Positions 8,432 to 33,970 of a stretch of 64,000 bases of DNA are shown in pieces (position 1 is the first letter of the stretch; each line of letters starts with the position of its first letter). Source of the DNA: Pelagibacteraceae bacterium AG-461-B04 (lineage in GTDB: Bacteria > Pseudomonadota > Alphaproteobacteria > Pelagibacterales > AG-422-B15); assembly GCA_003211835.1 (NCBI GenBank), contig QCRN01000006.1:2545-66544 (forward strand), given 5' to 3'. The notes beneath the pieces are model-generated. The model did no database searches. It was not told where the DNA came from and was given only the letters and a program-made list of their open reading frames with translations. Both the position numbers and the translations under genes were made by a program.

Positions 8432-8565
8432 ATCAATTAAAACAATTACTTAGATATTTTAGCAAAAGATATTCACACTTTGTCAATTTGGCAAGCATCA
8501 GTAATTGTGAAAGCCCTTATTTGATAAAAGATGCCCTTATAAAATTAAATATAGGGAGAAAATAC

Positions 8566-11370: not shown

Positions 11371-11382
11371 AATAGATAAAGT

Positions 11383-20143: not shown

Positions 20144-20571
20144 CTATAGAACTCATTGTCCCTGATATATCCAAGTGACTCATAAAGAGATTGGCCAGGT
20201 ATATTAGCTTTATTTGTTGAAAGCTCTATGGAGCCAAATTTATTCTCAGTTGCATAATTTTTAGCAGCATCCATTAAAGACTTAGCTATACCTTTTCTTC
20301 TAAACTCTTCTCTTACAAATAAGTCGTATAGAACAATTTTTTTTCTTACATTCACTGAGTCAAAAGTTGGATATAATTGTGTAAAGCCTGCACAAGTACT
20401 ACCTTCTTTCTGAAAAAAGATGATTGACTCATTATTCTCAAGCCTCTGCTTGATATATTTTTGTGCAATTTCAACATTTGACTCCTGGCTATAAAAGACT
20501 CGGTACAAATTAAAAACCTCTCCGATCATATCAGAGTATTCTATGGTTGCTCTTTTAATATTTTCTGTCAT
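20125..20571 (-). CDS. GNAT-family N-acetyltransferase
   Basis: 148 aa. Acetyl-CoA motif A REEFRRKGIAKSLM. Confidence 0.8.
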   Translation of the reverse strand: MTENIKRATIEYSDMIGEVFNLYRVFYSQESNVEIAQKYIKQRLENNESIIFFQKEGSTCAGFTQLYPTFDSVNVRKKIVLYDLFVREEFRRKGIAKSLMDAAKNYATENKFGSIELSTNKANIPGQSLYESLGYIRDNEFYSYDLEI

Positions 20572-20572
20572 C

Positions 20573-21730
20573 TTAGTTTCTTATAGTTCTATAAATTGAA
20601 ATCATTAAGAAAATAAAAGTAAAAAATACAATTGTATATATAAAACCAAAAGGACCAAAAATATCCATAACTCTTCCCCCAATCAGTGGACCAATTAATG
20701 AACCACACTCAAAAACCATAACTAATATTGCCGTTGCACCTGCAACCTGTGAAGCGGTATATCTTTCCCCCAACATTGTGAGCGATATTGAGAATATACC
20801 ACTAGCTGCTCCTCCCCAAACAAAGCAGCTTAATGCCACTAAATAGAAGTTTCCTAAGAAAACACCTATAATTATTGGACAAACAAAAGTACAGAAGACA
20901 GCAATATTCATGAGCAGTCTCTTATTCATTCTATCAAGTAAAATACCAATTAGTGGTTGACATATGACACCACCAACTAAGGTAATAGTGACAAACTGAA
21001 GAGCAATGTCTTGTGAAAACTGGTTCTTAATCATAAAGATTGGAAAAAATGAAACGAACATAACATCGTCCAATCCACAGAGTATTGCTGCTCCAAAAAT
21101 AGTCGGTGCGGCTATAATCGTTGCTAAAACTGGAAGAGATTTTTTCTCAGGCAATTCTTGATCTGCTATATCAAGTGTTATGAGTGGGATAATTGCTATA
21201 AATGACATTGCCGCAATCACAATAAATGGAAGCCATCCTTCGATACCTGTTAAAGATATAACAAGAGGACCTATTGCAAGACCAATTATAAATACTGTAT
21301 TGTATATTGTGACTATTTTACCGCGATTTGAGTCATTAGCCATCGATAACATCCAAGTATCAAAAGCATTCCATGCAAGTGCTCCTGCAAATCCAATAAG
21401 GAAGCGTATAATGAACCACGCAGTTAAGCTTTCAAATATAGGAAAGGTAAAATATAAAATAATTGTAACTATTTGAGCAATGATAATTGATCTAGATAAC
21501 CCAATTGCATGAATAATGATTGGTGTAATTCTTACAAATAAAATTACTGCCAATGGTTGAGCTACAACATTTAATCCAATTTGTGTATTACTGAAGCCTC
21601 TTGACTCAAGTATTAATGATAATAAGGGAATAAGGGTACCAAGTTTTATGCCAATAATAAGAGCACATAAAAATAAAACAATATACGTTTTATAATTACT
21701 TCCAAGTATAGATTGAAAAGTTGAAATCAC
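20573..21730 (-). CDS. MFS transporter
   Basis: 385 aa, 12 hydrophobic helices. Sits between the TetR and GNAT genes with a 4-nt overlap and a 1-nt gap. Confidence 0.8.
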   Translation of the reverse strand: MISTFQSILGSNYKTYIVLFLCALIIGIKLGTLIPLLSLILESRGFSNTQIGLNVVAQPLAVILFVRITPIIIHAIGLSRSIIIAQIVTIILYFTFPIFESLTAWFIIRFLIGFAGALAWNAFDTWMLSMANDSNRGKIVTIYNTVFIIGLAIGPLVISLTGIEGWLPFIVIAAMSFIAIIPLITLDIADQELPEKKSLPVLATIIAAPTIFGAAILCGLDDVMFVSFFPIFMIKNQFSQDIALQFVTITLVGGVICQPLIGILLDRMNKRLLMNIAVFCTFVCPIIIGVFLGNFYLVALSCFVWGGAASGIFSISLTMLGERYTASQVAGATAILVMVFECGSLIGPLIGGRVMDIFGPFGFIYTIVFFTFIFLMISIYRTIRN

Positions 21731-22386
21731 ACAAACCGTTTTTCATCTGTATAAATATTTTTAAAGTATTTTTTTATTAGTCCTTTACAAAATACATGTG
21801 AGTACATTTTAGGATCAAATAAAATTCTTTGCCATAATCCGTCTACCATTGAAAGATAAGTTTCACTTATTTCTCTTGGCGTCAGAAAAGTCTGATCAGT
21901 TAAAAAATTTAATTCTTTAATTAACTTTTCCATCTGAGATGAATATATTTCATCTTGCTTTTGACAGATTGTTAAATAAGAAGGACGAAATTTTACTTCA
22001 CTATAAAACGATACCCAGACTGCAATTTTATTTCTACTTGCAATTTTACTACTAAAATCATTTTCAATTATTTTGATTACTCTTCCAACTGGATCTAAGT
22101 TATTATCTTCGAATATTCGTTGCCAAGAATTTTTATATTCATCTGATAGAAATTTTAGTGAACTAAGCAAAAGATTTTCTTTAGATTTAAATCTAAAATT
22201 TGCATAACCTTGTGATACCATTGCTTTCTTAGCTACTTGCGCAATCGTCGTGTCTGCGAGACCTCTTTTGGCTATAGTTTCAATTGTTGCGTCAATTAGT
22301 TTTTGATGATTGATTGAAAATTCCTGTTCTTTCAGTTGAGGATTACTAATTTTTTTGGGATTTATATTCATTAAAGAACCATACAC
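21727..22386 (-). CDS. TetR-family transcriptional regulator (N-terminal HTH looks BetI-like)
   Basis: 219 aa. HTH region LIDATIETIAKRGLADTTIAQVAKKAMVSQGYANFRFKSKENLL. Confidence 0.85.
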   Translation of the reverse strand: MYGSLMNINPKKISNPQLKEQEFSINHQKLIDATIETIAKRGLADTTIAQVAKKAMVSQGYANFRFKSKENLLLSSLKFLSDEYKNSWQRIFEDNNLDPVGRVIKIIENDFSSKIASRNKIAVWVSFYSEVKFRPSYLTICQKQDEIYSSQMEKLIKELNFLTDQTFLTPREISETYLSMVDGLWQRILFDPKMYSHVFCKGLIKKYFKNIYTDEKRFV

Positions 22387-22412: not shown

Positions 22413-22432
22413 TATTGAATAATCATTCAATA
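22413..22432. promoter_or_regulatory. palindromic operator in the divergent TetR / flavoprotein promoter region
   Basis: TATTGAAT-AATC-ATTCAATA, with perfect 8-bp arms. The TTGAAT in each arm can serve as a -35: + strand TTGAAT 22415-22420, N16, TATCAT 22437-22442; minus strand TTGAAT (complement of 22425-22430), N18, TACCAT (complement of 22401-22406). Confidence 0.6.
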
Positions 22433-22466
22433 TGGGTATCATATAAATTCAATATTCGTTCATTTT

Positions 22467-24095
22467 ATGCCAAAAAATACTCATGATGTAATTGTTGTAG
22501 GAGCCGGCCATAATGGCTTAACAGCGGCTAGTTATATGGCTAAAGCTGGGCTCGATGTTGTCGTTTTAGAAAAAAATGATTGGATTGGCGGTGCTGCAGT
22601 GAGCCGAGAACTGTACCCTGGATGGAAATATTCAAATTGTTCCTATGTTTGTAGTTTATTAAGACCTGAGATCATGCGTGACTTGGAACTTTATAAATAT
22701 GGACTTCAAATTATTCCTTATGAAGGCAGTGCAACGATGATGAAAAATGGAGATTATTATACTCATTATCATGATCATGATATGACCATCAACTCTATTA
22801 GACGTCATTCTCATAAAGATGCAGAAGCTTATGAAAGATATAGCCGCGATGTTCTTAGGCAATGTAAAATTATTAAGCCTCTTCTTAAAATGACGCCTCC
22901 TGACTTAACATCGTTCAAACCAAAAGATTTATTTGGAGCGCTGGAGTTTGCAAAGCATTTTGCTGCAAAAGATGAATTAGGTGGACTAGGAGAAAAAGAA
23001 ATTTATGACACAATTCGCTTCTATACGATGAGCATCAGAGATTACTTAGAAGAATATTTTGAAAGTGAAATTACCAAAGCTCACCTTGCTGGCAGCGCTA
23101 TTATTGGAACTGCTCTGGGCCCATGCTCACCAGGATCAGCTTATGTATTGTTGCATCATTACATGGGTGAAGTTGACGGATCAGTTGGTTCATGGGGATA
23201 TGCACGAGGTGGAATGGGATCTATTACTCAGGCAATGATGGGTTGTCTAAAAGATCATGGAGGAGAAGTAAAACCAAGCAGCGAAGTAACAAATGTTATT
23301 ACAAAAAATGGAAAAGCAATCGGTGTTGCTACACAAAATGGAGATGAATACTATGCTAAGAAAATAGTCTCCAACCTTGATGTCAAAAGAACTTTTTTAA
23401 AGATTACTGAAGAGAAGGACCTTCCAGATGATTTTGTACGAAGTGTTAAAAATTTTAAGATAAGGGGTTCATCTGGTAAATTAAATATAGCATTAGATGG
23501 CTTACCAGACTTTCCTTGTATTCCTGAAGGTGATCCAGGCGGTGGCGGAGACATGCATTTCACAGAAACGATAGAAGAGATGGAAGGAGCTTACGATGAT
23601 TGGAAAAGGGGAGAATGGTCTCGTAATCCATATGTTGATATGTGCATTCCATCAAAAAGTGACCCTACAATGGCTGAGCCAGGTAAACATTATATGTCTG
23701 TATTTATTCAGTATGTACCATTTAACCTTGCAAATGGTGGTTGGAATGAAGAGAGAAAGCAAGAATTTGGAAGACACATAGTTGATTGTATTGCAGAGTT
23801 TTCTCCTAACTTTAAAGACCTAATTAATCATTATGAGGTACGTACACCACTAGAATTAGAAAACGAAGTTGGTTTGACAGAAGGCAATATTTTTCAAGGA
23901 GAGTTGACCATGGACCAATTAATGTTCAATAGGCCAGTTCCAGGATATGCGCAGTATAGGACTCCATTAAAAAATATGTATATATGTAGCTCTTCAACAC
24001 ATCCAGGCGGAGGTGTAATGGGCGCACCAGGAGCTAACGCAGCTCGTGAAGTTCTATTAGACATGAACGTTCCACAAAAAGGAAATTATTATTAA
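22467..24095 (+). CDS. FAD-dependent oxidoreductase, CrtI/phytoene-desaturase / amine-oxidase superfamily (COG1233-like), copy 1
   Basis: 542 aa. Dinucleotide fold VIVVGAGHNGLTAASYMAKAGLDVVVLEKNDWIGGAA. C-terminal STHPGGGVMGAPGANAA. Confidence 0.8.
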   Translation: MPKNTHDVIVVGAGHNGLTAASYMAKAGLDVVVLEKNDWIGGAAVSRELYPGWKYSNCSYVCSLLRPEIMRDLELYKYGLQIIPYEGSATMMKNGDYYTHYHDHDMTINSIRRHSHKDAEAYERYSRDVLRQCKIIKPLLKMTPPDLTSFKPKDLFGALEFAKHFAAKDELGGLGEKEIYDTIRFYTMSIRDYLEEYFESEITKAHLAGSAIIGTALGPCSPGSAYVLLHHYMGEVDGSVGSWGYARGGMGSITQAMMGCLKDHGGEVKPSSEVTNVITKNGKAIGVATQNGDEYYAKKIVSNLDVKRTFLKITEEKDLPDDFVRSVKNFKIRGSSGKLNIALDGLPDFPCIPEGDPGGGGDMHFTETIEEMEGAYDDWKRGEWSRNPYVDMCIPSKSDPTMAEPGKHYMSVFIQYVPFNLANGGWNEERKQEFGRHIVDCIAEFSPNFKDLINHYEVRTPLELENEVGLTEGNIFQGELTMDQLMFNRPVPGYAQYRTPLKNMYICSSSTHPGGGVMGAPGANAAREVLLDMNVPQKGNYY

Positions 24096-25612
24096 TGCCT
24101 GGCAATTCGAGTTTTGATGCCATCATAATTGGTGGAGGTCATAATGGATTGGTATGCGCAAACATCCTTGCTAGAAAAAATAAAAGAGTATTAATCTGCG
24201 AAGCCCGAAAAGAATGTGGTGGTATGGTCAATAATGATATTACCAACTATGTACCTCCAGTAACATCTGCCGTTTCAAGCTCGATTGGTGGAATGCAAAT
24301 AAACTACGTACCAAAGACCACAATTGCCTTATCTGAAACTGGACAACACATACGACTAGTGGGCAATCAACACATTGATCATAAATCTATCTCAACATTT
24401 TCTTCTCATGATGCTGACCGGTTTAATGATTTTCATGAAAAAATGTCAAAATTCTCAAAAACTTTAGGTTCTTTCATGATGGCATCTCCTCCGCGAATAA
24501 TGAACAATAGTTTTTCTGACTATTTTAAACTCTTTAAGCTTGGATTGAATGTCAGGTTATTAGGAAAGAAAAATTTTAATGAGTTTGCCAGAATGATTGG
24601 CCTAAATATAGCTGATGAACTTGAAGACAATTTTGAAAATACACTACTTCAAGGATTGATAGCGCATGACTCGGTTATAGGTTCTAATTTAGGCCCGCGT
24701 TCACCAGGCTCTCTCATAAATTTATTGTATAGAATGGCTATCCATAACAATTCTTTATTCGGTGGTATATTCCAAATAGAGGGCGGCAATGATCAATTCA
24801 CTAAACATTTAATTGAAAAATGCAAAAGTAATAATGTAGAAATAAAAACTTCAGCTTCTGTTAAAAATTGTATTATTGAAAATGACTGCGCTGTAGGTAT
24901 TGAGCTAAACAATGGTGAAAAAATGTATGCTAAGAAAATTATTTCAAATGCAGATCCACGTTCAACATACTTTTCACTGCTCGGTTCTCAAAACCTTGAT
25001 ACTGACGTAAAGAGGAAAATAAAACACCATCGCTCCAAAGGAAGAGTTGCCAAACTCATTTTAGAGTTGGATAAGCTCCCTAGTTTTAACAATTGTGATG
25101 ACAATGATTTAGACAGCAGAATGGTTGTTGCGCCATCTATTGATTACATTGAAGAAACATATAATCCAAGCAAGTTTGATAAGCTTTCACTAGAGCCAAC
25201 ACTTGAGATATGTGTAAAAAAAGACTCTGATCAAAATCCAAAGTTAGATATTCAAGTGCAATATGCACCATATAAAACTCATCAAGGGTGGGAAAATGTA
25301 AAAGTAAATTATATTGAATCTATAATCAAAATCATTAGTAAATATGCTCCTAATATTAATGAATGCATTGAGCGTAAGAAATTACTAACCCCTGACGATA
25401 TTGAATCAGAATATAATGTATCAGGAGGGCACTGGCATCATGGTGAGATTCAAATTGATCAGCTTTTTATGATGCGCCCAATTCCAGGAGCCTCACAGTA
25501 TAAAACACATTTGGATGGTCTTTTTATGTGCGGTGCAGGGACACACCCAGGTGGCGGTTTAACCGGCATTTCAGGCAAAAATGCAGCTAAAGCAGTCTTG
25601 GATGATTTTTAA
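24095..25612 (+). CDS. FAD-dependent oxidoreductase, CrtI/amine-oxidase superfamily, copy 2 (paralogue of copy 1)
   Basis: 505 aa. AIIIGGGHNGLVCANILA...CGGM and C-terminal GTHPGGGLTGISGKNAA. TAATG overlap with copy 1. Confidence 0.8.
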   Translation: MPGNSSFDAIIIGGGHNGLVCANILARKNKRVLICEARKECGGMVNNDITNYVPPVTSAVSSSIGGMQINYVPKTTIALSETGQHIRLVGNQHIDHKSISTFSSHDADRFNDFHEKMSKFSKTLGSFMMASPPRIMNNSFSDYFKLFKLGLNVRLLGKKNFNEFARMIGLNIADELEDNFENTLLQGLIAHDSVIGSNLGPRSPGSLINLLYRMAIHNNSLFGGIFQIEGGNDQFTKHLIEKCKSNNVEIKTSASVKNCIIENDCAVGIELNNGEKMYAKKIISNADPRSTYFSLLGSQNLDTDVKRKIKHHRSKGRVAKLILELDKLPSFNNCDDNDLDSRMVVAPSIDYIEETYNPSKFDKLSLEPTLEICVKKDSDQNPKLDIQVQYAPYKTHQGWENVKVNYIESIIKIISKYAPNINECIERKKLLTPDDIESEYNVSGGHWHHGEIQIDQLFMMRPIPGASQYKTHLDGLFMCGAGTHPGGGLTGISGKNAAKAVLDDF

Positions 25613-26812
25613 ATGACGCAAGATCTTAGATATTCAGCTTTAAAGAAAACACCTTTTCATTCAAGAACCAGTTTGGCTTCGCGAACGAACAAATATTATA
25701 ACTGGAATGGATATACTGTGCCTACAGAATACTCAACTACCGAGCTTGAATATACAGCAGCAAGAAATGGAACATCAGTTATGGATCTAACCCCTATGGG
25801 CAAATATGAAATTATAGGAGATCATGCGCATCAATTTGTTGATTACTTAGTTACTAGAGATTTATCAAAAATGAAGGACAATACAGTAGCTTATATCATC
25901 TGGTGTAATGAAGATGGAAAGGTGATCGACGATGGTACTATTTTCAAATTTTCTTCAACAAAATTTATGCTTTGCTGTGCTGTTAAAATATATAACTGGC
26001 TTAATGACTCAGCTTATGGTTTTGATGTTACAATTACCGATGTGACAGATACAATTGCTGCACTAGCAATTCAAGGGCCAACATCCTGTTCAACTTTAAA
26101 AAAATTTGGAGCAACAGATCTTGAAACATTAAAACCTTTTGAAATGAGAGAATATAAGATTGATGGTTTCGATATTTTAATATCACGTACAGGATTTACA
26201 GGTGATTTGGGTTATGAATTGTGGACTGATCCAAAAAATGCAGAAACGACGTGGGACAATATTGAAATTGCTGGTAAGGAATTAAAATTAAGACCTTTTG
26301 GAATGTATGCACTCGAAATGACTAGGATTGAAGCAGGATTTATTCAAACCAATACAGACTTTATGGCTGCAGAAGACTCATTAAGGCCGACCAGAATGAG
26401 GTCACCTTATGAAATTGGAATGGGATGGCTTGTGCACTTAAACAAAAACTCATATTTTGTTGGAAAGAAAGCACTTAAAAAAGAAAAAGAAGAAAATTCT
26501 ACTGAAAGATGTTTAGTAGGTTTGGATATAGATGGAGATAAGCCAGCACATGGTTCTGTAATATATAACAGCAAAAAAGAGGATATTGGAATTGTAACTG
26601 CAGCTTTATGGTCTCCTATTATGAAAAAAAATATTGCACTTGCTTCACTCAAGAGACCGTACGGAATAAAAATAAAAGAAAACATATTTGCAGAAATTTA
26701 TCACCCTGAAGAACTTGAGTACCGAAAAATATGGGCACGATGTAAGGTAGTTAAAAGGCAATTTTTTAACCCTGAAAGAAGAAATAAGGTACCTGCAGAT
26801 CTATACGAATAG
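25613..26812 (+). CDS. aminomethyltransferase-family (GcvT-like) folate-binding protein
   Basis: 399 aa. TPFHSRT...NWNGYTVPTEY...EYTAARNGTSVMDLTPMGKYEI, ISRTGFTGDLGYELW and RIEAG blocks of the GcvT fold. The ATG follows the upstream stop with no gap. Confidence 0.8.
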   Translation: MTQDLRYSALKKTPFHSRTSLASRTNKYYNWNGYTVPTEYSTTELEYTAARNGTSVMDLTPMGKYEIIGDHAHQFVDYLVTRDLSKMKDNTVAYIIWCNEDGKVIDDGTIFKFSSTKFMLCCAVKIYNWLNDSAYGFDVTITDVTDTIAALAIQGPTSCSTLKKFGATDLETLKPFEMREYKIDGFDILISRTGFTGDLGYELWTDPKNAETTWDNIEIAGKELKLRPFGMYALEMTRIEAGFIQTNTDFMAAEDSLRPTRMRSPYEIGMGWLVHLNKNSYFVGKKALKKEKEENSTERCLVGLDIDGDKPAHGSVIYNSKKEDIGIVTAALWSPIMKKNIALASLKRPYGIKIKENIFAEIYHPEELEYRKIWARCKVVKRQFFNPERRNKVPADLYE

Positions 26813-26879: not shown

Positions 26880-28283
26880 ATGCCTAAATCAACATCACAA
26901 TCTGCTAAAAACGATTTAAAGAATACTCTAGATGATAGAATCCTTCATCCGTGGCAATACTTAGAATACAGAGGTGAAGATGATCGTACATTTATTGATA
27001 AGTCTGAGGGAATTTACTTATATGACAAGACAGGAAAAAAACTGATTGATGGACCTGGAGGCATGTGGAATGTCAATGTAGGTCATGGCGTTAAAGAAAT
27101 TGCAGATGCAGTTTATAATCAAATTACTAAAATGCCATATGCAAGTCCGTTTACTGAGTCAACAGAAATAGCTCACGATTATGCATCAAGACTTGTTCAA
27201 TACGCACCGGGTGATTTAAAGAGAATTTTTTTTACGTCTGGGGGATCGTCTGCTGTGGACTCAGCATTACGATTTGTAATGTTCTATAATAATATTCTTG
27301 GCCGAAAAGAAAAAAAACAAATTATATCAAGAAACGATGCTTACCATGGCAGTACATTTTTAGGAGCTTCTTGTTCAGGCAAGGAAAGAGATAAAAATAA
27401 TTTTGATTTCGCAAGTAATATTGTTCATCATATTTCATCTCCTAATCCTTTTCGTAAACCCGATGATCTTACTGACGAAGAATTCTGTGATCTAAAAGTT
27501 CAAGAATTAGAAAACAAAATAATTGAAATTGGGGCTGACAAGGTAGCTGCTTTCATTGCTGAACCTATCTTAGCTTCAGGTGGCGTGATTGTCCCACCAA
27601 AAGGTTATCATAAGAAGACACATGAAATTTGCAAAAAACATGATGTGTTGTATATTTCTGACGAAATCGTCACTGGCTTTGGAAGACTTGGTCATATTTT
27701 TGCTTCAGAAAATTATTTTGATTTTACACCAGATATTATTCTTTTGGCTAAAGGGATTACATCTGGATATGTGCCTTGTGGAGCAGTTGTTATATCGGAG
27801 CGATTGATGTCCAAATTAGATAATAAAGAAAAAGTAATTTTTTCAAACGGTTTCACAGACTCAGGGCATCCTGTTAGTATGGCCGCCGCAACTGCTACTT
27901 TAGACTACATTGAAAAAACAAATTTACTTGATCACGTAAAAGATGTTGGTCCTTATTTTCAAGCAAAATTGAGAGAGCTTACTGATTTGCCAATTGTTGG
28001 TGAAGTTAGAGGTGAAGGTCTAATGGCTGCAGTAGAATGTGTAGGCAATAAAGATAAAAAAGATCCACTGAATTTGTCCTATGAGATTGGCTCTAGGATT
28101 AATGAACATTGCCAGCAACTTGGTTTAATTGTACGACCATTATTTAGTACATGCGTCATGTCACCGTCATTAATTATCACGAAGGAACAAATTGATGACC
28201 TTGTTTCTATTTTGCGTAAAGGCATAGAGTTAGCAACTGATGATATCAAAAAAGAAGGTCTCTGGTCAGCAACTTCAAATTAA
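26880..28283 (+). CDS. class-III aminotransferase
   Basis: 467 aa. GGMWNVNVGHG, DEIVTGFGRLG and LAKGITSGY (PLP lysine) blocks. Confidence 0.85.
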   Translation: MPKSTSQSAKNDLKNTLDDRILHPWQYLEYRGEDDRTFIDKSEGIYLYDKTGKKLIDGPGGMWNVNVGHGVKEIADAVYNQITKMPYASPFTESTEIAHDYASRLVQYAPGDLKRIFFTSGGSSAVDSALRFVMFYNNILGRKEKKQIISRNDAYHGSTFLGASCSGKERDKNNFDFASNIVHHISSPNPFRKPDDLTDEEFCDLKVQELENKIIEIGADKVAAFIAEPILASGGVIVPPKGYHKKTHEICKKHDVLYISDEIVTGFGRLGHIFASENYFDFTPDIILLAKGITSGYVPCGAVVISERLMSKLDNKEKVIFSNGFTDSGHPVSMAAATATLDYIEKTNLLDHVKDVGPYFQAKLRELTDLPIVGEVRGEGLMAAVECVGNKDKKDPLNLSYEIGSRINEHCQQLGLIVRPLFSTCVMSPSLIITKEQIDDLVSILRKGIELATDDIKKEGLWSATSN

Positions 28284-29521
28284 TGACCTTTTTTAATCAA
28301 CTTAAAGAAAGATATGAAGAAGGAAAGACTCTTCCGCAAGAGTTTTATACTGACGAAAAAATATTCTCTGATGAAATGAAAAAAATTTATTTCAAACAGT
28401 GGCTGATGGTTGATCATGTTAGCCGTATCCCAAATCCTGGAGATTATTTTTTATTTAACGCGGAAAAAGAGTCAATAATTCTAATACGTGGAAGGGATAG
28501 TCAAGTTAGAGCTTTTTATAATGTTTGTTCTCATCGTGGTTCAAGAATATGTTTGGAAGATGAAGGAACAAAAAAACTTCTAGTTTGTCCATATCATGCT
28601 TGGAGTTTCTCTGCAGAGGGAGAATTAAAGTCAGCGCGCTACATGCCAGAGGATTTTAAAATGGAAGATTGGGGTTTAAAACCATGTCATATGAATATTT
28701 ATCAAGGCTTGATATTCATAAATCTTTCAATGGATGAACCAATGGATTTTAATGAGTTTATTTCTCCATTGACAGAGCTTGTAAATTTTCATAACCCTGA
28801 AAAGGCAAAGATTGCTGCTAGACGAAAATATCCTACGAAAGCTAATTTCAAACTTGTTCTAGAAAATTTCCAAGAATGCTATCACTGTGGTCCAGCACAT
28901 CCAGAACTATGTTCAGTGCATGAAAAAGACTGGGTATTCACAATGGGTGCTGGTCTTGGAACGGCCCCAGAAAAAGAAACACAAGAATATTTAAAAAAGA
29001 TTCAACCATGGATTGAGGATTGCAAATCAAAAGGAATTCCCTCAAAAACATATTTAGAAACTGAAGAAGGATTAAGTAAGGGATTAAATCGATACGTAGA
29101 CCGTACACCCATTGGTAATGGAAATTTATCACAAACTAAAGATGGTAAACCAGCCTCTAAACTAATGGGTCAGTTTAAAGAATTTGATGGTGGTTTATCC
29201 CAAGTAAGTTTTAATCCTTTTGGCTGTTGTTACTTTACAAATGACTTTGGAGTTATGTTTATATTTAAACCATTATCAATTTTGCAATCTGAAGTTGAAT
29301 TGATTTGGTTAGTCAATGAGGAAGCTGAAGAGGGCATAGACTTTAATGAAGAAAATCTTACCCACATATGGGACGTAACTACTGCACACGACACAACCAT
29401 AATTGAAAATAACCAAAATGGCTTATTGTCTCATTCTTTTAGTCCTGGGGTTCTTTCTCAGAATGAGTCAGCTGTTACCTATTTTTATGATTGGTATTTT
29501 ACCAATATGAAGTTACCATAA
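28283..29521 (+). CDS. Rieske [2Fe-2S] non-haem-iron oxygenase, alpha-subunit type (GbcA/CntA/Stc2-like N-dealkylating group is plausible)
   Basis: 412 aa. Rieske ligands CSHRG...CPYHAW. Mononuclear-iron block ENFQECYHCGPAH (H-x4-H). TAATG overlap with the aminotransferase. Confidence 0.85.
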   Translation: MTFFNQLKERYEEGKTLPQEFYTDEKIFSDEMKKIYFKQWLMVDHVSRIPNPGDYFLFNAEKESIILIRGRDSQVRAFYNVCSHRGSRICLEDEGTKKLLVCPYHAWSFSAEGELKSARYMPEDFKMEDWGLKPCHMNIYQGLIFINLSMDEPMDFNEFISPLTELVNFHNPEKAKIAARRKYPTKANFKLVLENFQECYHCGPAHPELCSVHEKDWVFTMGAGLGTAPEKETQEYLKKIQPWIEDCKSKGIPSKTYLETEEGLSKGLNRYVDRTPIGNGNLSQTKDGKPASKLMGQFKEFDGGLSQVSFNPFGCCYFTNDFGVMFIFKPLSILQSEVELIWLVNEEAEEGIDFNEENLTHIWDVTTAHDTTIIENNQNGLLSHSFSPGVLSQNESAVTYFYDWYFTNMKLP

Positions 29522-29558: not shown

Positions 29559-29777
29559 ATGAAAACGTTCTTCACAGTAGTCACCTTTTTTTTTATTTCT
29601 ACAATAGCTTTTTCAGAAACAGTCATTGAAAATAAAAAAAGATTTGGAGGCCCAAAATCTGATTATGTTTTAGAAAGAAAAGAATTCAATTTTCTTACCT
29701 CTGTAAAGGACACAAAAGGTAATTGGATTACATCAAAAAAGTATGGTGAAATAGTTCGATATGGGATTCCAAATTAA
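29559..29777 (+). CDS. hypothetical small secreted protein (72 aa)
   Basis: Clear signal peptide MKTFFTVVTFFFISTIAFS followed by a hydrophilic 50-residue part. No family recognised. Confidence 0.4.
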   Translation: MKTFFTVVTFFFISTIAFSETVIENKKRFGGPKSDYVLERKEFNFLTSVKDTKGNWITSKKYGEIVRYGIPN

Positions 29778-29802: not shown

Positions 29803-31158
29803 ATGAAACAATTATATGATAAGGCAATATACGATGTCAATAAACCCATCGAAAGCTATTGGGAAGAGGTCAGCGGCATTGATCAAAATAAGTATCCAAA
29901 ATTAATAGGCGATCAATCATGCGATGTATGTATCATTGGAGGTGGATTTACAGGCATTAGTACCGCGTATCATATTGCAAAAAATTATGGTGGAGATGTA
30001 AGAGTTTTAGAAGCTGGGCACTATGGTTTCGCAAGCAGTGCAAGGAACGCTGGTTTTTGTTGTCTGCCAGCAACAAAATTATCAACGACACAATTAATAA
30101 AAAAGTTTGGTATGGAAGAGACAAAGAAATTTTTTTCATCTCAAATTGAGGGCGTTGAACTTCTTTCATCAATCATATCAGAAAATAATATTGATTGTGA
30201 AAAAGTAGGTGATGGCAACCTTGATGTAGCCCACCATCCAGGGAGTAGCGAAGAATTAAAAGAATGGGGGAATGAATTAAAAGAGTATTTTGGAATCAAT
30301 ACAAAATGGATACCTAAGGAAGAATTTGATGAAGTTGGACATCAATCAACAGAACAATTTGGTGCAGTTTTTACAGAAGCTGGATTTGCAATGAATCCTA
30401 TGGCATTTATGCGAGGTTTTGCATCAGCAACTGTAGATGCCGGTGCTAAATTGCATAGTTTTTCGAGAGTAAAAAAATGGGAGAGAAATGGATCACATAA
30501 ATTAATAACAGAAGGTGGATCACTTACTGCAAATAAAGTTGTTGTAGCTACTAACGGCTATACGGATGAATCACTTCACCCAAGTTTTGCTAATAGAATG
30601 ATGCCAGTCTTATCAAACATTATTGTTACTAGAGAAATGAGTGATGATGAATTTAAGTTACAAAACTATAAAACGTTAAATCCCATATGTAATTCTAGAG
30701 AAATTTTATATTATTACAGAAGAATGCCTTCTAACAGAATGTTATTTGGTACAAGAGGCGATACTTATGGCGATGATGCAAGTGCACTGAAAATGAGAGA
30801 ATTAATGACTCATAAATTTAAGGGCGTTTTTCCTAATTGGAACGATGTAGATATTGATCACTACTGGAGAGGTACAGTAGTCATGACTAGAGATTTCGTC
30901 CCAGCATTTGGTGCACTAGATGATGATAAGTCAGTACTGTTTTCTTATGGCTATCAAGCTAATGGAAACAATACTACAGTTTATTGTGGAAAGAAGTTGG
31001 CTGAGATGATTTATGAGTCCAACAGTGGGGAAACAAATATATCAAAAGTCTATCAAGGTCTCTCTCCTAAAATACCACTAGGTTTTTTAAGATTATGGTA
31101 CTTAAGACTGTATCTATGGTATTCAAATTTTACTGATAAAAGTAAAAAAGAAATATAA
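29803..31158 (+). CDS. FAD-dependent oxidoreductase, DAO family (gamma-glutamylputrescine oxidase PuuB-like)
   Basis: 451 aa. DVCIIGGGFTGISTAYHIA dinucleotide fold. Length and layout as in PuuB/OrdL-type enzymes. Confidence 0.75.
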   Translation: MKQLYDKAIYDVNKPIESYWEEVSGIDQNKYPKLIGDQSCDVCIIGGGFTGISTAYHIAKNYGGDVRVLEAGHYGFASSARNAGFCCLPATKLSTTQLIKKFGMEETKKFFSSQIEGVELLSSIISENNIDCEKVGDGNLDVAHHPGSSEELKEWGNELKEYFGINTKWIPKEEFDEVGHQSTEQFGAVFTEAGFAMNPMAFMRGFASATVDAGAKLHSFSRVKKWERNGSHKLITEGGSLTANKVVVATNGYTDESLHPSFANRMMPVLSNIIVTREMSDDEFKLQNYKTLNPICNSREILYYYRRMPSNRMLFGTRGDTYGDDASALKMRELMTHKFKGVFPNWNDVDIDHYWRGTVVMTRDFVPAFGALDDDKSVLFSYGYQANGNNTTVYCGKKLAEMIYESNSGETNISKVYQGLSPKIPLGFLRLWYLRLYLWYSNFTDKSKKEI

Positions 31159-31194: not shown

Positions 31195-32079
31195 ATGTTG
31201 CAAGTCTGGAAGTCATTTTATGCGAGGAGTGATCCTGCAAAAGCTTATTCACTACTTTCTCCTGCATTGATCTTGGTTACTTTAGCTATGCTTATACCAT
31301 TAGGGCTAATGTTAAGTTTTAGTTTTTTTACTCAAACCAGTTTCACAGAAATTGACTACTCTTTTACTATCACAAGGTACATTGATTTTTTTCAAAGTAA
31401 TTTGCTTGTTTCACTACTTATAAAATCAGTGAAGATTTCGTTTATTGTAACTTTCGTAACTCTTCTTACTGCATATCCTGTTTGTTATTACATAGCTTTT
31501 TATGTAAAGAAAAATAAAATGCTATGGCTTGTTTTATTGACTTTACCTTTCTGGACATCCTATCTTTTGAGGGTCTTTTCTTGGAAAATTATCCTTGGAA
31601 CTAAAGGAGTTATTAATTCTTCCTTAATTAATGCAGGACTGCTTAGCGAACCTCTCACTTTTTTAATGTATTCTGAGACAGCGGTTATTATAACCCTCAC
31701 CCATGCATGGGCGGCATTTGCTTTACTGCCTTTGTATGTTTCATTGGATAAAATAGATTTTTCTCTAATTGAAGCTGCCAGAGACTTAGGATTGTCAAGA
31801 CTAGAAACTTTTTGGAAAATCACTCTTCCATTATCTCTTCCTGGAATAATTGGCGCTATATTAATTATCTTTATTCCAACTGTTGGAGATTATGTAACGC
31901 CTGCTTTGCTTGGGGGAACTGACGGTAGAATGCTATCAAATATGATTCAAGCCTACTTTGGAAAAGTAAATAATCTTCCTCTTGGGGCTGCTTCTGCGAC
32001 TATTATGCTTATTACTGTAGCAATAGTGACAATCGTTGTTTCATATACAACAAAAAAACTTACTCAGAGGATTTCATAA
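31195..32079 (+). CDS. ABC transporter permease (PotB/PotH-like)
   Basis: 294 aa, 6 TM. EAA loop IEAARDLGLSRLETFWKITLP. Confidence 0.85.
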   Translation: MLQVWKSFYARSDPAKAYSLLSPALILVTLAMLIPLGLMLSFSFFTQTSFTEIDYSFTITRYIDFFQSNLLVSLLIKSVKISFIVTFVTLLTAYPVCYYIAFYVKKNKMLWLVLLTLPFWTSYLLRVFSWKIILGTKGVINSSLINAGLLSEPLTFLMYSETAVIITLTHAWAAFALLPLYVSLDKIDFSLIEAARDLGLSRLETFWKITLPLSLPGIIGAILIIFIPTVGDYVTPALLGGTDGRMLSNMIQAYFGKVNNLPLGAASATIMLITVAIVTIVVSYTTKKLTQRIS

Positions 32080-32895
32080 GTGGAGCAAAAAAATAATACA
32101 TTGTTAATTTACACCTTATTGTATTTTGCATTTTTATATATTCCTGTTTTATTCTTACCAATATTTAGTTTTAATGACGCAAATTATATGTCATTCCCCC
32201 TCTCTGGATTTACAACAGAGCATTATGAAGAAATGTGGGCAAAAACAAATTTACATAAAGCTCTTTGGGCTAGTATCAAAGTAGGTGTAGTGGCAAGTGT
32301 TGTCAGCACAACAATAGCATTGTTTGCGGCCAAAGCATTCGCACGGTATAAATTCAGAGGACAAAATATTTCTTATGGTGCCATTATGATCCCTTTTTTA
32401 ATCCCTGAAATTATTTTAGCAGTTGCAATACTTGTGATTTGGTTGAGCCTTGGTTTTAAATTAGGACTTGTGCCGGTAACTTTAGGACATATTCTTTTTT
32501 GTACTCCGTTCGCGATGCTTATTTTAATCGCTCGTATAGAAGGATTTGATTTCTCACTTGAGGAAGCTTCAAGAGACCTTGGAGAAAACGCTTGGGGGAC
32601 ATTTTACCGAGTATCTCTTCCATTATACCTACCAGGCATAATAGCTTCACTTTTATTGAGCTTTATCATTTCATTTGATGAATTTGTTCTGGCATTCTTC
32701 TTAACTGGAAGTGATGCAACATTGCCTATGTATATGTGGGCTCAAATGAGATTTATTCAGAAACTGCCTCATGTATTGGCTCTAGGAGCGGTTATAATTG
32801 TGTTTACTACTTTTATAGTTTTGTTAGCATTCTGGTTACGAAACCTTGGTCAAGGAAAAGAGAAAGCTGAATTTGGAATAAAAATACATGAATGA
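32080..32895 (+). CDS. ABC transporter permease (PotC/PotI-like)
   Basis: 271 aa. GTG start directly after the upstream stop. EAA loop EEASRDLGENAWGTFYRVSLP. Confidence 0.85.
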   Translation: MEQKNNTLLIYTLLYFAFLYIPVLFLPIFSFNDANYMSFPLSGFTTEHYEEMWAKTNLHKALWASIKVGVVASVVSTTIALFAAKAFARYKFRGQNISYGAIMIPFLIPEIILAVAILVIWLSLGFKLGLVPVTLGHILFCTPFAMLILIARIEGFDFSLEEASRDLGENAWGTFYRVSLPLYLPGIIASLLLSFIISFDEFVLAFFLTGSDATLPMYMWAQMRFIQKLPHVLALGAVIIVFTTFIVLLAFWLRNLGQGKEKAEFGIKIHE

Positions 32896-33970
32896 TTCCT
32901 TCATACAGATAAACGGAATTTCTAAGCATTTTGGAAATGTAAAAGCGGTAGATGATGTCTCTTTTCAAATTAAAGAGGGAGAGTTTTTCTCTCTGCTAGG
33001 TCCTTCAGGTTGCGGCAAAACAACATTATTAAGATTATTAGCCGGCTTTGAGTATCCGACTAGTGGTAATCTATTACTTGATGGCAGTGATATTACTGCA
33101 TTGCCTCCTGACAAAAGACCTACAAATATGGTTTTTCAGAATTATGCAATTTTTCCTCATATCAATGTTGAAAAAAATGTTCAGTTTGGCTTGAGAAAAC
33201 TCGGCTTAACAAATGATGAAATTATCAAAAGAGTTAAGGACGTTTTGTCGTTGGTAAAATTAGAAGGTTATGAGGAACGCTATAGTAGCCAACTATCTGG
33301 AGGTCAAAGACAAAGAGTGGCATTAGCAAGGGCTTTAGTAAGACAACCAAAAGTATTATTACTGGATGAGCCACTTGGGGCACTGGATAAAAAGTTACGT
33401 GACGAAATGCAACTTGAACTTAGAACTCTTCAAAAAGAGATTGGAATAACTTTTGTATTTGTTACACACGATCAGCAAGAGGCTATTAGTATGTCAGATC
33501 GTGTTGCGGTGATGAGTGAAGGTAAAATTCAGCAGATGTCGTCTCCAAACGAATTATATAAAAATCCTCAAAATATATTTGTTAGTGACTTTATTGGCGA
33601 AACTAATTTTTTAAGAGCTAAGACAGCTTCTAAAGATGGAGAATATATTAATGTTAACATTGAAGATCTTGGCTCGTTTAAAATAAAAAATAATCTTAAT
33701 ATAAGTGAAAATGCTTCAGATGTTATTTGCAGTGTTCGTCCAGAGACAATGATGATTGACAGAGAAAAATCAGATTGGGACATTTGCTTAGAGGGTAAAA
33801 TCAGGCAAACATCATATCTAGGTGAAATGACAAAATTTTATGTTGAAACTAAAGAAATAGAAAAAATTATAACCGTATCATCACAATATTTTGATAATCA
33901 GTCTTTTCAAGATGGTAAATGCTTTATTAGCATAAATTTAAACGATATTTCCTTACTGAATAAAAAATAG
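32888..33970 (+). CDS. ABC transporter ATP-binding protein (PotA/PotG-like)
   Basis: 360 aa. Walker A GPSGCGKTT, signature LSGGQRQRVALARAL, Walker B LLLDEP, and a C-terminal TOBE-like domain. Confidence 0.9.
   Translation: MNDSFIQINGISKHFGNVKAVDDVSFQIKEGEFFSLLGPSGCGKTTLLRLLAGFEYPTSGNLLLDGSDITALPPDKRPTNMVFQNYAIFPHINVEKNVQFGLRKLGLTNDEIIKRVKDVLSLVKLEGYEERYSSQLSGGQRQRVALARALVRQPKVLLLDEPLGALDKKLRDEMQLELRTLQKEIGITFVFVTHDQQEAISMSDRVAVMSEGKIQQMSSPNELYKNPQNIFVSDFIGETNFLRAKTASKDGEYINVNIEDLGSFKIKNNLNISENASDVICSVRPETMMIDREKSDWDICLEGKIRQTSYLGEMTKFYVETKEIEKIITVSSQYFDNQSFQDGKCFISINLNDISLLNKK

Follow-up and report, generated by a model that had tools for sequence, protein, structure and literature searches.

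What might be the function of an operon in which the genes for two tandem flavoproteins run directly into the gene for a stand-alone, GcvT-like folate protein? This question is raised by a locus in the window analysed here, a stretch of 64,000 nucleotides of DNA from Pelagibacteraceae bacterium AG-461-B04. The core of the locus comprises three genes, which we refer to as A, B and T:

22467..24095, forward strand: A, 542 aa, ATG start (ORF listing); CrtI/amine-oxidase fold, PYROXD2-like; proposed catalytic subunit
24095..25612, forward strand: B, 505 aa, ATG start; diverged paralogue of A, always directly downstream of A; proposed partner subunit
25613..26812, forward strand: T, 399 aa, ATG start; stand-alone GcvT-family protein; proposed tetrahydrofolate-dependent C1 acceptor

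At the A/B junction the window sequence reads TATTATTAATGCC (24091-24099), such that the final A of A's TAA is the first base of B's ATG (a 1-nt overlap). At the B/T junction it reads TTTTAAATGACG (25607-25618), and the stop codon of B (25610-25612) is followed without a gap by the ATG of T at 25613. A preliminary description of this DNA had reported the TAATG overlap at 24095 and the zero spacing between B and T, and both are borne out by the ORF listing and the sequence. The motifs that it had ascribed to the flavoproteins (GAGHNGL in A, GGGHNGL in B and a C-terminal THPGGG in both) can be seen in the translations, and its portrayal of A and B as diverged but intact paralogues of 542 and 505 aa agrees with the ORF lengths and with an alignment at 29% identity over the full length of the two proteins (E 6e-70).

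The neighbourhood census that the preliminary description had proposed revealed that the A-B-T order, and its coupling, are kept without exception in the independent loci, about 75 in number, that are long enough for the order to be seen. The gap between A and B ranges from -23 to +11 nt, and that between B and T is mostly -8 to +2 nt, with wider B/T gaps in three gammaproteobacterial (Lysobacterales-type) MAGs (17-58 nt) and in locus L073 (834 nt). Carriers include SAR11, other marine Alphaproteobacteria, Rhodospirillales, Hyphomicrobiales, Rhodobacterales and Gammaproteobacteria, and among cultured bacteria Rhizobium sp. SL42, Parasedimentitalea marina, Fuscovulum ytuae and Aestuariispira insulae. 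Because it recurs across several orders of Alpha- and Gammaproteobacteria, the arrangement is not due to chance. (Note that tight coupling is evidence of co-expression, not of physical association.) The genes bear generic names only, at all loci, and a full-text search of literature that took in few subscription journals did not find a characterised A-B-T triad, in keeping with the earlier remark that no characterised system of this composition was known. The preliminary description had overlooked the wide spread of the triad, cultured bacteria included, together with the homology of A to PYROXD2 and the DmmD precedent discussed below.

Profile searches, also proposed earlier, placed the Pfam Amino_oxidase family PF01593 at residues 17-520 of A (54 bits) and in B (34 bits), along with NAD_binding_8 in each; Pfam matches of A and B to the DAO family were limited to the N-terminal Rossmann segment. 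Both proteins retain GxGxxG, the acidic residue after β2, the GG motif and HPGGG. A and B are predicted to share a two-domain CrtI/MAO fold: the top PDB match of the AF2 model of A (pLDDT 80.7) was 4rep, followed by NicA2, CrtI, MAO-B and putrescine oxidase, and that of the model of B (pLDDT 85.1) was likewise 4rep. A is the slowly evolving member of the pair, being 62-75% identical to its orthologues in other orders (32-43% for B), with 173 invariant columns in an alignment of 16 diverse orthologues. B keeps its FAD motifs and has an invariant motif of its own, GGHWHHG.

A is closer to mouse PYROXD2 (38% identity over 549 residues, end to end, 381 bits) than it is to B. The two share invariant SY..SLLRP, PGS.YVLLHH.MG, GGMG, GNIF..., DQL.F.RP and HPGGGVMGA.G.NAA motifs. 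However, PYROXD2 is a single mitochondrial orphan protein, whereas A belongs to a three-gene operon, and to our knowledge PYROXD2 has neither an adjacent or fused folate partner nor a B-like partner. Several bacterial clades, that of A among them, are about equally distant from PYROXD2 (35-45%), so that A is a homologue without orthology being implied. In humans the PYROXD2 locus is a metabolite QTL for trimethylamine and dimethylamine (PMC3169529), for N2-acetyl-N6,N6-dimethyllysine (PMC13352909) and for N-methylpipecolate (PMC5780481); the signal is strong and, within these three studies, the metabolites are N-methylated amines only. The place of A in a PYROXD2-like clade that human genetics ties to N-methylamines fits a role in N-demethylation. 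Independent associations point in the same direction. In Shinella sumterensis a single PYROXD2-like gene immediately precedes a GcvT-family gene distinct from T, and another single PYROXD2-like gene directly follows a gene for RidA, a family of imine deaminases. Against this, several other single-copy PYROXD2-like genes had no GcvT neighbour, and some occur in sugar-type contexts.

The third protein had been described as stand-alone and GcvT-like, and Pfam matches to GCV_T (PF01571, 199 bits) and GCV_T_C (PF08669, 38 bits) agree. Its sequence places T in the GcvT family of folate proteins but not among the glycine-cleavage T-proteins, since it scores below the cut-offs for true GcvT (NF001567, 235 against 300 bits; TIGR00528, 169 against 236). 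Its top NCBIfam match is the C-terminal half of trimethylamine N-oxide (TMAO) demethylase, the part that captures formaldehyde (NF053776, 275 bits, profile positions 376-722 of 763), the solved structure of which, PDB 9q59, it matches at residues 409-745 (E 2e-47); it also matches the folate domains of SoxA, DMGDH and DMGO. Aligned with Thermotoga maritima GcvT, T keeps the key T-protein residues whose presence had been left to be checked, Asp96 (Asp107 in T) and Glu195 (Glu202). At the position of Arg227 it has Leu234, a leucine common to the TMAO demethylase domain, and at that of Tyr188 it has Phe; these two substitutions might count against the proposed role, though less clearly so given the leucine shared with TMAO demethylase.

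The genes that surround A-B-T in the window are the following:

20125-20571, reverse strand: GNAT acetyltransferase (Pfam), co-directional with the TetR gene
20573-21730, reverse strand: MFS transporter (Pfam), co-directional with the TetR gene
21727..22386, reverse strand: TetR-family regulator with a BetI-type C-terminal domain (Pfam TetR_N and TetR_C_6), divergent from A
22413..22432, no strand: perfect palindrome (8-4-8) between the TetR gene and A, TATTGAAT-aatc-ATTCAATA
26880..28283, forward strand: class-III (omega) aminotransferase (PF00202; NF005447 above cut-off, 655 against 618)
28283..29521, forward strand: Rieske non-haem-iron oxygenase alpha subunit of the quaternary-amine N-demethylase type (Rieske and Ring_hydroxyl_A)
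29803..31158, forward strand: DAO-family FAD oxidoreductase (PF01266, full length), weakly like pipecolate oxidase and aminophosphonate oxidoreductase
31195..33970, forward strand: PotB/PotC/PotA-like ABC importer, two permeases and an ATPase (BPD_transp_1 twice, ABC_tran)
34020..35099, reverse strand: PotF/PotD-like periplasmic substrate-binding protein of the preceding importer (weak PotF match)

The top NCBIfam match of the TetR-family regulator is BetI, under cut-off (97 against 201 bits), and a homologue adjoins A-B-T in 13 of 22 diverse loci as well as in L082, L083 and L091. It is probably the repressor of the A-B-T operon. The palindrome, which overlaps a -35-like TTGAAT at 22415 and is followed by a -10-like TATCAT that ends at 22442, is, to judge from sequence and position, probably the operator. 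Other SAR11 loci, and also MarineAlpha5-like SAGs, have TTGAATG-N2-CATTCAA or a palindrome almost identical to it 35-56 nt ahead of A, and Rhizobium sp. SL42 has a shorter TGAATGttCATTCA some 60-75 nt ahead of A.

Several of the other neighbours recur. The aminotransferase, the near PDB chains of which include GABA, putrescine and polyamine:pyruvate transaminases, is of a type that adjoins A-B-T in 7 of the 22 loci and in L082, L083, L086 and L091; a second class-III type is found immediately before A in 4 further loci of the 22. The Rieske oxygenase gene, the start of which overlaps the aminotransferase stop, recurs in 7 of 22; its product matches GbcA best among NCBIfam models (305 bits, under cut-off) and has 3n0q, 3vca, 4qup ('demethylase') and the carnitine monooxygenase CntA as its nearest PDB chains. 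Importer homologues adjoin the triad in 10-12 of 22 loci, and homologues of the binding protein (PDB matches to PotF/PotD, E 1e-15 to 1e-9) in 9. The GNAT gene recurs in 6 of 22 and in L083. The DAO-family oxidoreductase, far under the cut-offs of its NCBIfam matches, was seen in SAR11 loci only. An aldehyde dehydrogenase gene is sometimes present. In A. insulae an OYE/TMADH-like flavoprotein, a Rieske oxygenase, an ABC importer and a TetR gene occupy one side, and A-B-T, an aldehyde dehydrogenase and an aminotransferase the other, a layout that parallels GbcAB, DgcAB and SoxBDAG of glycine betaine breakdown. No ETF, cytochrome or other electron-acceptor gene was found near A-B-T in the window, which speaks against the reading set out below. 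The transporter type hints at polyamine-like cations, and the acyl-CoA genes of some lineages at omega-amino acids.

From these observations we infer, at slightly better than an even chance, that A, B and T, encoded in one repressible operon, constitute a tetrahydrofolate-coupled oxidative N-demethylase for a secondary or tertiary N-methylamine. The Pot-type system would import the N-methylamine or its quaternary precursor, from which the Rieske oxygenase, where present, would probably take the first methyl group. A, with FAD, would oxidise the N-CH3 bond to an iminium ion. B, which would be made in a fixed ratio with A, might pair with it as a pseudo-symmetric heterodimer and serve in the next demethylation or as a docking or electron-transfer partner. 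T and tetrahydrofolate would then capture the C1 unit as 5,10-methylene-tetrahydrofolate, so that free formaldehyde would not be released. The adjacent omega-aminotransferase probably acts on the demethylated primary amine, yielding an aldehyde that an aldehyde dehydrogenase would take next in some genomes, and the neighbour set fits such a demethylate-then-transaminate route. The BetI-like regulator would bind the palindrome before A and let go when substrate is present. A folate-linked N-dealkylase built on a non-DAO flavoprotein lineage, as put forward in the preliminary description, is a candidate reading consistent with every test that was possible; the aminopropylated substrate suggested there is unlikely, because a C3 unit is not transferable to tetrahydrofolate.

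It is unlikely, if still worth weighing, that T alone is a tetrahydrofolate-dependent methyltransferase that moves a methyl group straight from a quaternary ammonium or sulfonium compound to the folate, making 5-methyl-tetrahydrofolate, with A and B as ordinary deaminating or dehydrogenating amine oxidases of a later step and no channelling between these two and T. DmdA, which acts on the sulfonium DMSP, and LigM, which acts on aryl methyl ethers, are enzymes of this kind, and besides GcvT the models for DmdA (134 bits) and LigM/DesA (63-69 bits) match T. An onium substrate is plausible given the BetI-like regulator and the quaternary-amine-type Rieske partner, and the fold matches include MAO-type enzymes, which deaminate primary amines. 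However, T is much nearer to the TMAO demethylase C-terminal domain (275) and GcvT (235) than to DmdA, the B and T genes are overlapping or contiguous in almost every lineage, a sign of fixed stoichiometry, and removal of the primary amine is already covered by the omega-aminotransferase.

We give little credence to the idea that A and B are a polyamine or acetylpolyamine oxidase that cuts the secondary amine in spermidine, norspermidine or an acetylated polyamine, with T merely mopping up stray aldehyde or acting on some other compound. Eukaryotic PAO/APAO, with an SSAT-type GNAT, would be its model, and the Pot-type importer with its PotF-like binding protein, the GNAT neighbour, the PuuD-like and glutamine-synthetase-like genes in the window, the histone-deacetylase-family (acetylpolyamine amidohydrolase-like) genes in L064, L083 and L087, and putrescine oxidase among the fold matches are all in line with it. 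Yet the C3/C4 amino-aldehyde products would be unusable by a folate C1 acceptor, although T is the most constant partner of A and B; the PF01593 matches are weak, A and B being nearer to PYROXD2/CrtI than to PAO; and the Rieske N-demethylase-like and BetI-like neighbours would be left without a role. It is highly improbable that A and B are independent C-C desaturases or ketolases of the isoprenoid or carotenoid type, conserved next to a functionally unrelated T: among NCBIfam models they match CrtO, the CrtI family and CrtD best, and their top PDB matches by sequence and fold are CrtI (4dgk) and gamma-carotenoid desaturase (4rep), but the scores are far under the family cut-offs (CrtO, 288 against 1000; crtI_fam, 95 against 238), no carotenoid or isoprenoid genes were found among the A-B-T neighbours in any lineage, where amine-catabolic genes recur instead, and the overlap with T is preserved across classes.

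Among known systems, the CrtI-family desaturases and the CrtO ketolase thus resemble A and B in overall fold and FAD-binding motifs, and differ in family scores and in setting, A and B lying amid amine catabolism rather than carotenoid synthesis; the characterised members (CrtO, CrtI, CrtD/4rep) desaturate or ketolate C-C, not C-N, bonds. The chemistry proposed here for the N-demethylase is that of SoxBDAG and MgdABCD, in which the flavoenzyme that oxidises an N-methyl group has several subunits and the C1 unit is taken up as 5,10-methylene-tetrahydrofolate by a GcvT-like folate domain, and T matches the folate region of SoxA (156 bits; PDB 1vrq and 2gag, E 2e-26 to 4e-26). The cluster logic is also alike, since A-B-T would come last, following demethylases of the Rieske and OYE types. 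However, those enzymes have a DAO-family catalytic flavoprotein (SoxB), a folate domain fused into a large alpha subunit, and small delta and gamma subunits, whereas A-B-T has PYROXD2/CrtI-like flavoproteins, a separate T and no delta- or gamma-like genes. A GcvT-type domain, and chemistry like that proposed here, are also features of dimethylglycine oxidase/dehydrogenase and gamma-N-methylaminobutyrate oxidase, and the DMGDH and DMGO C-terminal domains are among the matches to T (PDB 4pab, 5l46, 1pj5). However, these enzymes are single-chain DAO-GcvT fusions, whereas A-B-T consists of three separate proteins and draws on another flavoprotein lineage.

A stand-alone GcvT-like partner for a non-DAO demethylase is already known. 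DmmD, which binds tetrahydrofolate (H4F), is encoded together with the N-demethylating DmmABC (PMC5520151; bioRxiv 10.64898/2026.06.26.734754); it is dispensable for dimethylamine demethylation in E. coli but needed for growth, and has been proposed to trap formaldehyde on H4F (PMC5520151). DmmD and T share a RefSeq name ('aminomethyltransferase family protein'), but the DmmABC partners form a monooxygenase system rather than CrtI-like flavoproteins; no Dmm-like genes were found near A-B-T. The TMAO demethylase Tdm provides in its C-terminal domain the closest family match to T, including the Leu at the Arg227 position, but joins it to an N-terminal metal-dependent demethylase domain, with no flavoprotein, and T lacks this N-terminal half. 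If the proposed N-demethylase is correct, A-B-T would represent chemistry like that of sarcosine and dimethylglycine oxidases built on another flavoprotein lineage.

The three joined genes, which encode two tandem flavoproteins of the CrtI/amine-oxidase fold (A and B) and a stand-alone GcvT-family protein (T), are arranged in the window as follows.

22467-24095, + strand: A, ORF of 542 aa
24095-25612, + strand: B, ORF of 505 aa
25613-26812, + strand: T, ORF of 399 aa

The preliminary description of this operon was accurate throughout as to the limits of the ORFs, the 1-nt overlap between A and B and the zero spacing between B and T: the final base of the TAA stop codon of A is the initial base of the ATG of B, and the TAA stop codon of B directly abuts the ATG of T. 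Both flavoproteins indeed contain an N-terminal GxGHNGL motif and a THPGGG block near the C-terminus, a full-length alignment (29% identity) bears out their description as paralogues, and Pfam searches identify A and B as flavin amine oxidoreductase plus NAD_binding_8 proteins and T as a GCV_T plus GCV_T_C protein. The triad singled out there also recurs. A scan of one genome per GTDB species yielded 500 confirmed relatives of A; 80 loci were kept, onto which the proteins of the window were mapped and in which the ORFs for A, B and T were re-called. In every kept locus of sufficient length the genes follow one another on a single strand in the order A, B, T, with A/B gaps of -23 to +11 nt and B/T gaps mostly of -8 to +2 nt. 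Wider B/T gaps occur in three gammaproteobacterial (Lysobacterales-type) MAGs (17-58 nt) and in L073, the locus of another gammaproteobacterial MAG, where 834 nt (11161-11994) separate the two genes; L073 is the sole locus in which the coupling is broken.

Carriers of the triad include SAR11, MarineAlpha5-like marine alphaproteobacterial single-amplified genomes (SAGs), Rhodospirillaceae, Hyphomicrobiales, several gammaproteobacterial MAGs and one Chromatiales MAG. Plasmid records, searched at the protein level, contributed further carriers that are in culture, namely Rhizobium sp. SL42, Shinella, Ensifer adhaerens, Fuscovulum ytuae and Parasedimentitalea marina, and Aestuariispira insulae came from looking up a B homologue. 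Pelagibacteraceae single-cell genomes hold identical or near-identical copies of A, which places the window within SAR11; the exact sequence is found on 240 contigs, and the 90% cluster of A has 754 members. RefSeq always names A and B 'NAD(P)/FAD-dependent oxidoreductase' and T 'aminomethyltransferase family protein', and the protein clusters of the triad members bear names no more specific than these. (A 904-aa database protein, P0099, matches A at E 2e-262 and carries in addition an N-terminal GMC-oxidoreductase domain, PF00732; this could be a true fusion or an artefact of gene calling on its 62-kb contig.)

By its sequence, T belongs to the GcvT-family folate-binding proteins (PF01571 and PF08669): it matches GCV_T at 199.4 bits (gathering score 25.6; residues 24-272) and GCV_T_C at 38 bits (gathering score 25.9; residues 299-385), in the usual domain order. 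T was rejected as a true GcvT, its scores falling short of the cut-offs of NF001567 (234.6 versus 300), TIGR00528 (168.7 versus 235.85) and NF010093 (117 versus 459). No gcvH or gcvP was found among the genes at 14.5-42.4 kb of the window, which were typed by Pfam or NCBIfam or were clustered or annotated in related loci. The best match of T is the C-terminal half of trimethylamine N-oxide (TMAO) demethylase, at 275 bits by model and at E 2e-47 by structure (9q59). Of the residues near folate N5/N10 in Thermotoga maritima GcvT, alignment indicates that Asp96 and Glu195 are kept in T (Asp107 and Glu202), and that Tyr188 and Arg227 are changed (Phe195 and Leu234); the TMAO demethylase domain likewise has Leu at the position of Arg227. 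One rival reading would have T work by itself, transferring a methyl group from an onium compound in the manner of DmdA; the relative scores of T against the family models speak against this.

Both flavoproteins exceed the Pfam gathering score of PF01593 (19.8 bits), A at 54.4 bits and B at 34.4 bits. The AF2 models of A and B are confident (pLDDT 81 and 85; pTM 0.85 and 0.87, respectively); for their matches to NicA2, MAO-B and putrescine oxidase the probability is 1.00 and the TM scores are 0.55-0.62. The top structural match of both models is the gamma-carotenoid desaturase 4rep (TM 0.75-0.77), after which come NicA2 nicotine oxidoreductase, CrtI, monoamine oxidases and putrescine oxidase. 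The PF01593 match and the two-domain FAD fold of the models place A and B among the flavin-containing amine oxidoreductases. A and B could be a polyamine oxidase to which T is incidental, a reading at odds with the constancy with which T accompanies them. They could also be C-C desaturases without relation to T, but carotenoid scores are far below threshold and none of the neighbours in 22 diverse loci is a carotenoid gene. Indeed, CrtI, CrtD and CrtO were each rejected as identities for A and B, the best score against the curated models being 288 bits versus a cut-off of 1000 (CrtO, 288 for A and 170 for B; crtI_fam, 95 and 86 versus 238).

A evolves slowly, with 62-75% identity between orders and 173 columns invariant in a set of 16 diverse orthologues; B is the fast-evolving member (32-43% identity, 44 invariant columns), and the rate of T lies between the two. 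In a separate alignment of 18 sequences, B retains its dinucleotide-binding motif together with the acidic residue that follows the second strand, as well as the GG motif and HPGGG, and a B-specific invariant GGHWHHG occupies the place of EGNIFQGE in A. The idea that B is a decayed pseudo-enzyme was ruled out by its retention of the FAD motifs and of 66 invariant columns that include GGHWHHG.

The conserved motifs of A resemble those of human PYROXD2; a search of the protein collection with a PYROXD2 query retrieved authentic primate and mouse entries at 85-98% identity, and the comparisons employed these retrieved database sequences. Over 549 residues, A and mouse PYROXD2 share 38% identity (381 bits, E 2e-130), a higher score than that of A against B (221 bits); B itself is 26% identical to PYROXD2 (192 bits). 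Fourteen bacterial A orthologues and four mammalian PYROXD2 sequences share 108 invariant columns. An all-against-all comparison gives 35-45% pairwise identity within the group formed by A, PYROXD2 and several single-copy homologues from bacteria, with B as the outlier. That comparison led us to reject A as the orthologue of PYROXD2, since single-copy bacterial homologues are as near or nearer: those of Sphingobium are 43-44% identical to PYROXD2 (408-412 bits) and that of Shinella sumterensis 40% (392-395 bits), compared with 36-41% for A. These alignments place A in a PYROXD2-like clade.

Single-copy PYROXD2-like plasmid genes, 35-40% identical to A, have contexts of their own. That of S. 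sumterensis lies immediately 5' of a different GcvT-family gene, whose product is 30% identical to T, in a cluster with CoA-ligase, enoyl-CoA hydratase, hydroxyacyl-CoA dehydrogenase and BKACE genes. Another is immediately 3' of a RidA gene and close to genes for GABA transaminase and succinate-semialdehyde dehydrogenase; another accompanies PuuC, aminotransferase, acetylpolyamine amidohydrolase and amidase genes; and some stand in sugar-type contexts. The association of the clade with amine catabolism is thus frequent and not universal, and on at least two occasions a PYROXD2-like flavoprotein gene has become associated with one of the GcvT family.

Few human metabolite QTLs are as strong or as often replicated as the PYROXD2 locus, which has also been linked to an infantile mitochondrial disorder. 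PYROXD2 is described as an enzyme without an assigned reaction (PMC8777681). Strong QTL associations at its locus have been found for urinary trimethylamine and plasma dimethylamine (PMC3169529), for N2-acetyl-N6,N6-dimethyllysine (PMC13352909) and, via the missense variant p.Met461Thr, for N-methylpipecolate (PMC5780481); these metabolites are N-methylated amines without exception. Met461 aligns with Val417 of A, within an invariant Q-Y-x-P motif. A tie of PYROXD2 to methylated 5-aminovalerate, which would fit the glutaryl-CoA-dehydrogenase-like neighbour of the operon, was dropped because one study (PMC5780481) mapped N-trimethyl-5-aminovalerate to another locus.

Ahead of the operon, the window has a divergent TetR gene of the BetI type together with MFS and GNAT genes. 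After it come genes for a class-III aminotransferase and a Rieske oxygenase (the stop of the former and the start of the latter overlap), followed by those for a DAO-family flavoprotein, PotB/PotC/PotA-like proteins and a PotF-like binding protein. Farther out are genes for a PuuD-like hydrolase, a glutaryl-CoA-dehydrogenase-like acyl-CoA dehydrogenase, a second aminotransferase, an amidase, a glutamine-synthetase-like protein and an enoyl-CoA hydratase. Clustering of flanking ORFs in 22 lineage-diverse loci gave the following neighbour counts.

TetR gene: 13 of 22 loci
Importer genes: 9-12 of 22 loci
Class-III aminotransferase: 7 of 22 loci, plus 4 with a second type immediately 5' of A
Rieske oxygenase: 7 of 22 loci
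Acyl-CoA dehydrogenase: 7 of 22 loci
GNAT gene: 6 of 22 loci

The Rieske protein is nearest to 3n0q, 3vca, 4qup (deposited as 'demethylase') and carnitine monooxygenase, and by NCBIfam to GbcA; the aminotransferase is nearest to GABA, putrescine and polyamine:pyruvate transaminases. In A. insulae, an OYE/TMADH-like flavoprotein, a Rieske oxygenase, an ABC importer and a TetR regulator are encoded on one side, and A, B, T, an aldehyde dehydrogenase and an aminotransferase on the other. In the breakdown of glycine betaine by Pseudomonas, GbcAB (Rieske) acts on the quaternary amine, DgcAB (OYE-like) on the tertiary amine, and a folate-dependent sarcosine oxidase takes off the remaining methyl group; these three tiers recur in the A. 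insulae cluster, where A-B-T stands in for sarcosine oxidase.

Several further features of these neighbourhoods deserve record. The PotF-like gene (34020-35099, - strand) has 43% G+C, compared with 33-36% in its neighbours, and its product is rich in Ala, Gly, Asp, Glu and Trp. The PotF-like and PotABC genes share 83-89% identity with their counterparts in alphaproteobacterial SAGs outside SAR11 (e.g. loci L040 and L043), in which A is only 74% and B 43% identical to its counterpart in the window; this pattern may reflect lateral exchange of the transporter or strong selection on an abundant periplasmic protein. A 364-aa protein (36715-37809, + strand) has only the Ring_hydroxyl_A/GbcA-like catalytic domain and no Rieske domain; its gene is flanked by the amidase gene (35166-36662, - strand) and the glutamine-synthetase-like gene (37824-39194, + strand), and P. 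marina has two 'SRPBCC family' genes of similar size just 5' of its TetR gene. Between the Rieske and DAO genes is a 72-aa ORF (29559-29777, + strand); gene calling on an independent contig also reports it, and no Pfam family matches it. Just 5' of the GNAT/MFS/TetR block, the segment 16752-20143 holds the PuuD-like gamma-glutamyl hydrolase gene (- strand), the glutaryl-CoA-dehydrogenase-like gene and the second class-III aminotransferase gene (NF005682 above cut-off); its synteny in most SAR11 loci hints at a larger island for the catabolism of amines and lysine derivatives. In the MarineAlpha5-like loci L040 and L045 (13466-16309), the operon is flanked by two acyl-CoA dehydrogenase genes, with NDP-forming acyl-CoA synthetase and enoyl-CoA hydratase genes 3' of the aminotransferase gene, which suggests that the carbon skeleton is handled as a CoA thioester in this lineage. 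The window also encodes a marine-subtype ammonium transporter (8488-9834, + strand; TTG start; TIGR03644 above cut-off); SAR11 amt genes are reported to be under riboswitch control and induced under nitrogen limitation (PMC3870248).

The 80-nt spacer between the TetR gene and A contains a perfect palindrome, TATTGAAT-aatc-ATTCAATA (22413-22432), that overlaps a -35-like hexamer. The same or a near-identical element, TTGAATG-N2-CATTCAA, occurs 35-56 nt 5' of A in other SAR11 lineages and in MarineAlpha5-like SAGs, and Rhizobium sp. SL42 has a shorter TGAATGttCATTCA ~60-75 nt 5' of A. Since the count of the pattern alone is not significant in the AT-rich window, it is on position and conservation that we infer the palindrome to be the operator of the BetI-like repressor. 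No terminator-like site was found from A to the Rieske gene in the window. The gammaproteobacterial loci L066, L072 and L073 are without the TTGAAT palindrome and share a motif, TAAACG-NN-CGTACAATA, ~40-70 nt 5' of A, pointing to a different regulator.

Gene structure, conservation, folds, family membership, the logic of the neighbouring genes and human genetics together make a folate-coupled oxidative N-demethylase the best-supported reading of A-B-T. In this proposal, A would oxidise an N-methyl C-N bond, T would take the C1 unit onto tetrahydrofolate, B would serve as the partner of A, and an aminotransferase would then remove the exposed primary amine. Because many enzymes of this fold are homodimers, a heterodimer of the paralogues A and B is plausible; the conserved His-rich motif of B suggests a distinct site and, perhaps, successive demethylation. 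The neighbours give three hints at the substrate: from the BetI-like regulator and the Rieske partner, that it derives from a quaternary precursor; from the Pot-type importer, that it is a cationic amine; and from the transaminase and aldehyde dehydrogenase genes and the acyl-CoA genes, that it is an omega-amino compound, for example a methylated diamine, GABA, beta-alanine or 5-aminovalerate. Dimethylamine ranks only as a possible substrate because methylamine genes are absent beside the operon: by NCBIfam the left part of the window has no tmm, tdm or other methylamine gene, and none recurs beside A-B-T elsewhere. (Note that the 'general amine oxidase' of nitrogen-limited SAR11 of Lidbury et al. 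is SAR11_1304, a DAO-family 'monomeric sarcosine oxidase', and is neither A nor B.)

A more speculative extension, which we regard as rather improbable as it stands, is that there is a new class of N-methylamine dehydrogenases, coupled to tetrahydrofolate and with a catalytic subunit of the PYROXD2 family, for which A-B-T serves as the prototype. Were this so, a bacterial operon would give the human orphan PYROXD2 a function, mitochondrial N-demethylation, with substrates such as dimethylamine, N-methylpipecolate and N6-methylated lysines, and the SAR11 operon could demethylate dimethylamine or similar secondary methylamines, a step without a known gene; dmmDABC was absent from all SAR11 genomes examined in 2017 (PMC5520151). 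The triad provides a first gene-context clue to the activity of PYROXD2, and its cultured, tractable carriers make both the N-demethylase and the PYROXD2 ideas directly testable. The operon is abundant in the surface ocean, as the contigs bearing A attest, and in SAR11 it bears on methylated-amine handling, in which dimethylamine is a genetic gap; its interest lies in its own abundance in SAR11, in the turnover of methylated amines in the ocean and, above all, in a testable function for PYROXD2. A full-text literature search yielded no description of the triad; most subscription journals lay outside its reach, so an earlier report is possible.

Neither the proposed chemistry nor recourse to a GcvT-type C1 acceptor is new in itself. 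To our knowledge, folate-coupled oxidative N-demethylation is known only with DAO-family flavoproteins (sarcosine oxidase, dimethylglycine oxidase/dehydrogenase, MABO and Mgd), and a version built on a PYROXD2/CrtI-like pair would represent a second, independent origin of this logic. In sarcosine oxidase and dimethylglycine oxidase, the GcvT-like domain is fused to the flavoprotein or the alpha subunit, whereas T is a separate ORF; those enzymes contain a full-length DAO-family PF01266 flavoprotein, whereas PF01266 covers only residues 7-47 and 8-43 of A and B, and the score against the soxB model is 33 bits (cut-off 529). No genes for delta- or gamma-like sarcosine oxidase subunits are found among the conserved neighbours of A-B-T. 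In DmmDABC, the GcvT-like DmmD functions alongside DmmA, DmmB and DmmC, whereas near A-B-T, by Pfam content, the Rieske protein is the only neighbour resembling a multi-subunit monooxygenase. DmmD, a stand-alone GcvT-like helper that is dispensable for dimethylamine demethylation in E. coli and is required for growth (PMC5520151), offers a precedent for a protein of this kind. What would be new relative to these systems is the flavoprotein lineage, the pair of paralogues and the three-protein layout.
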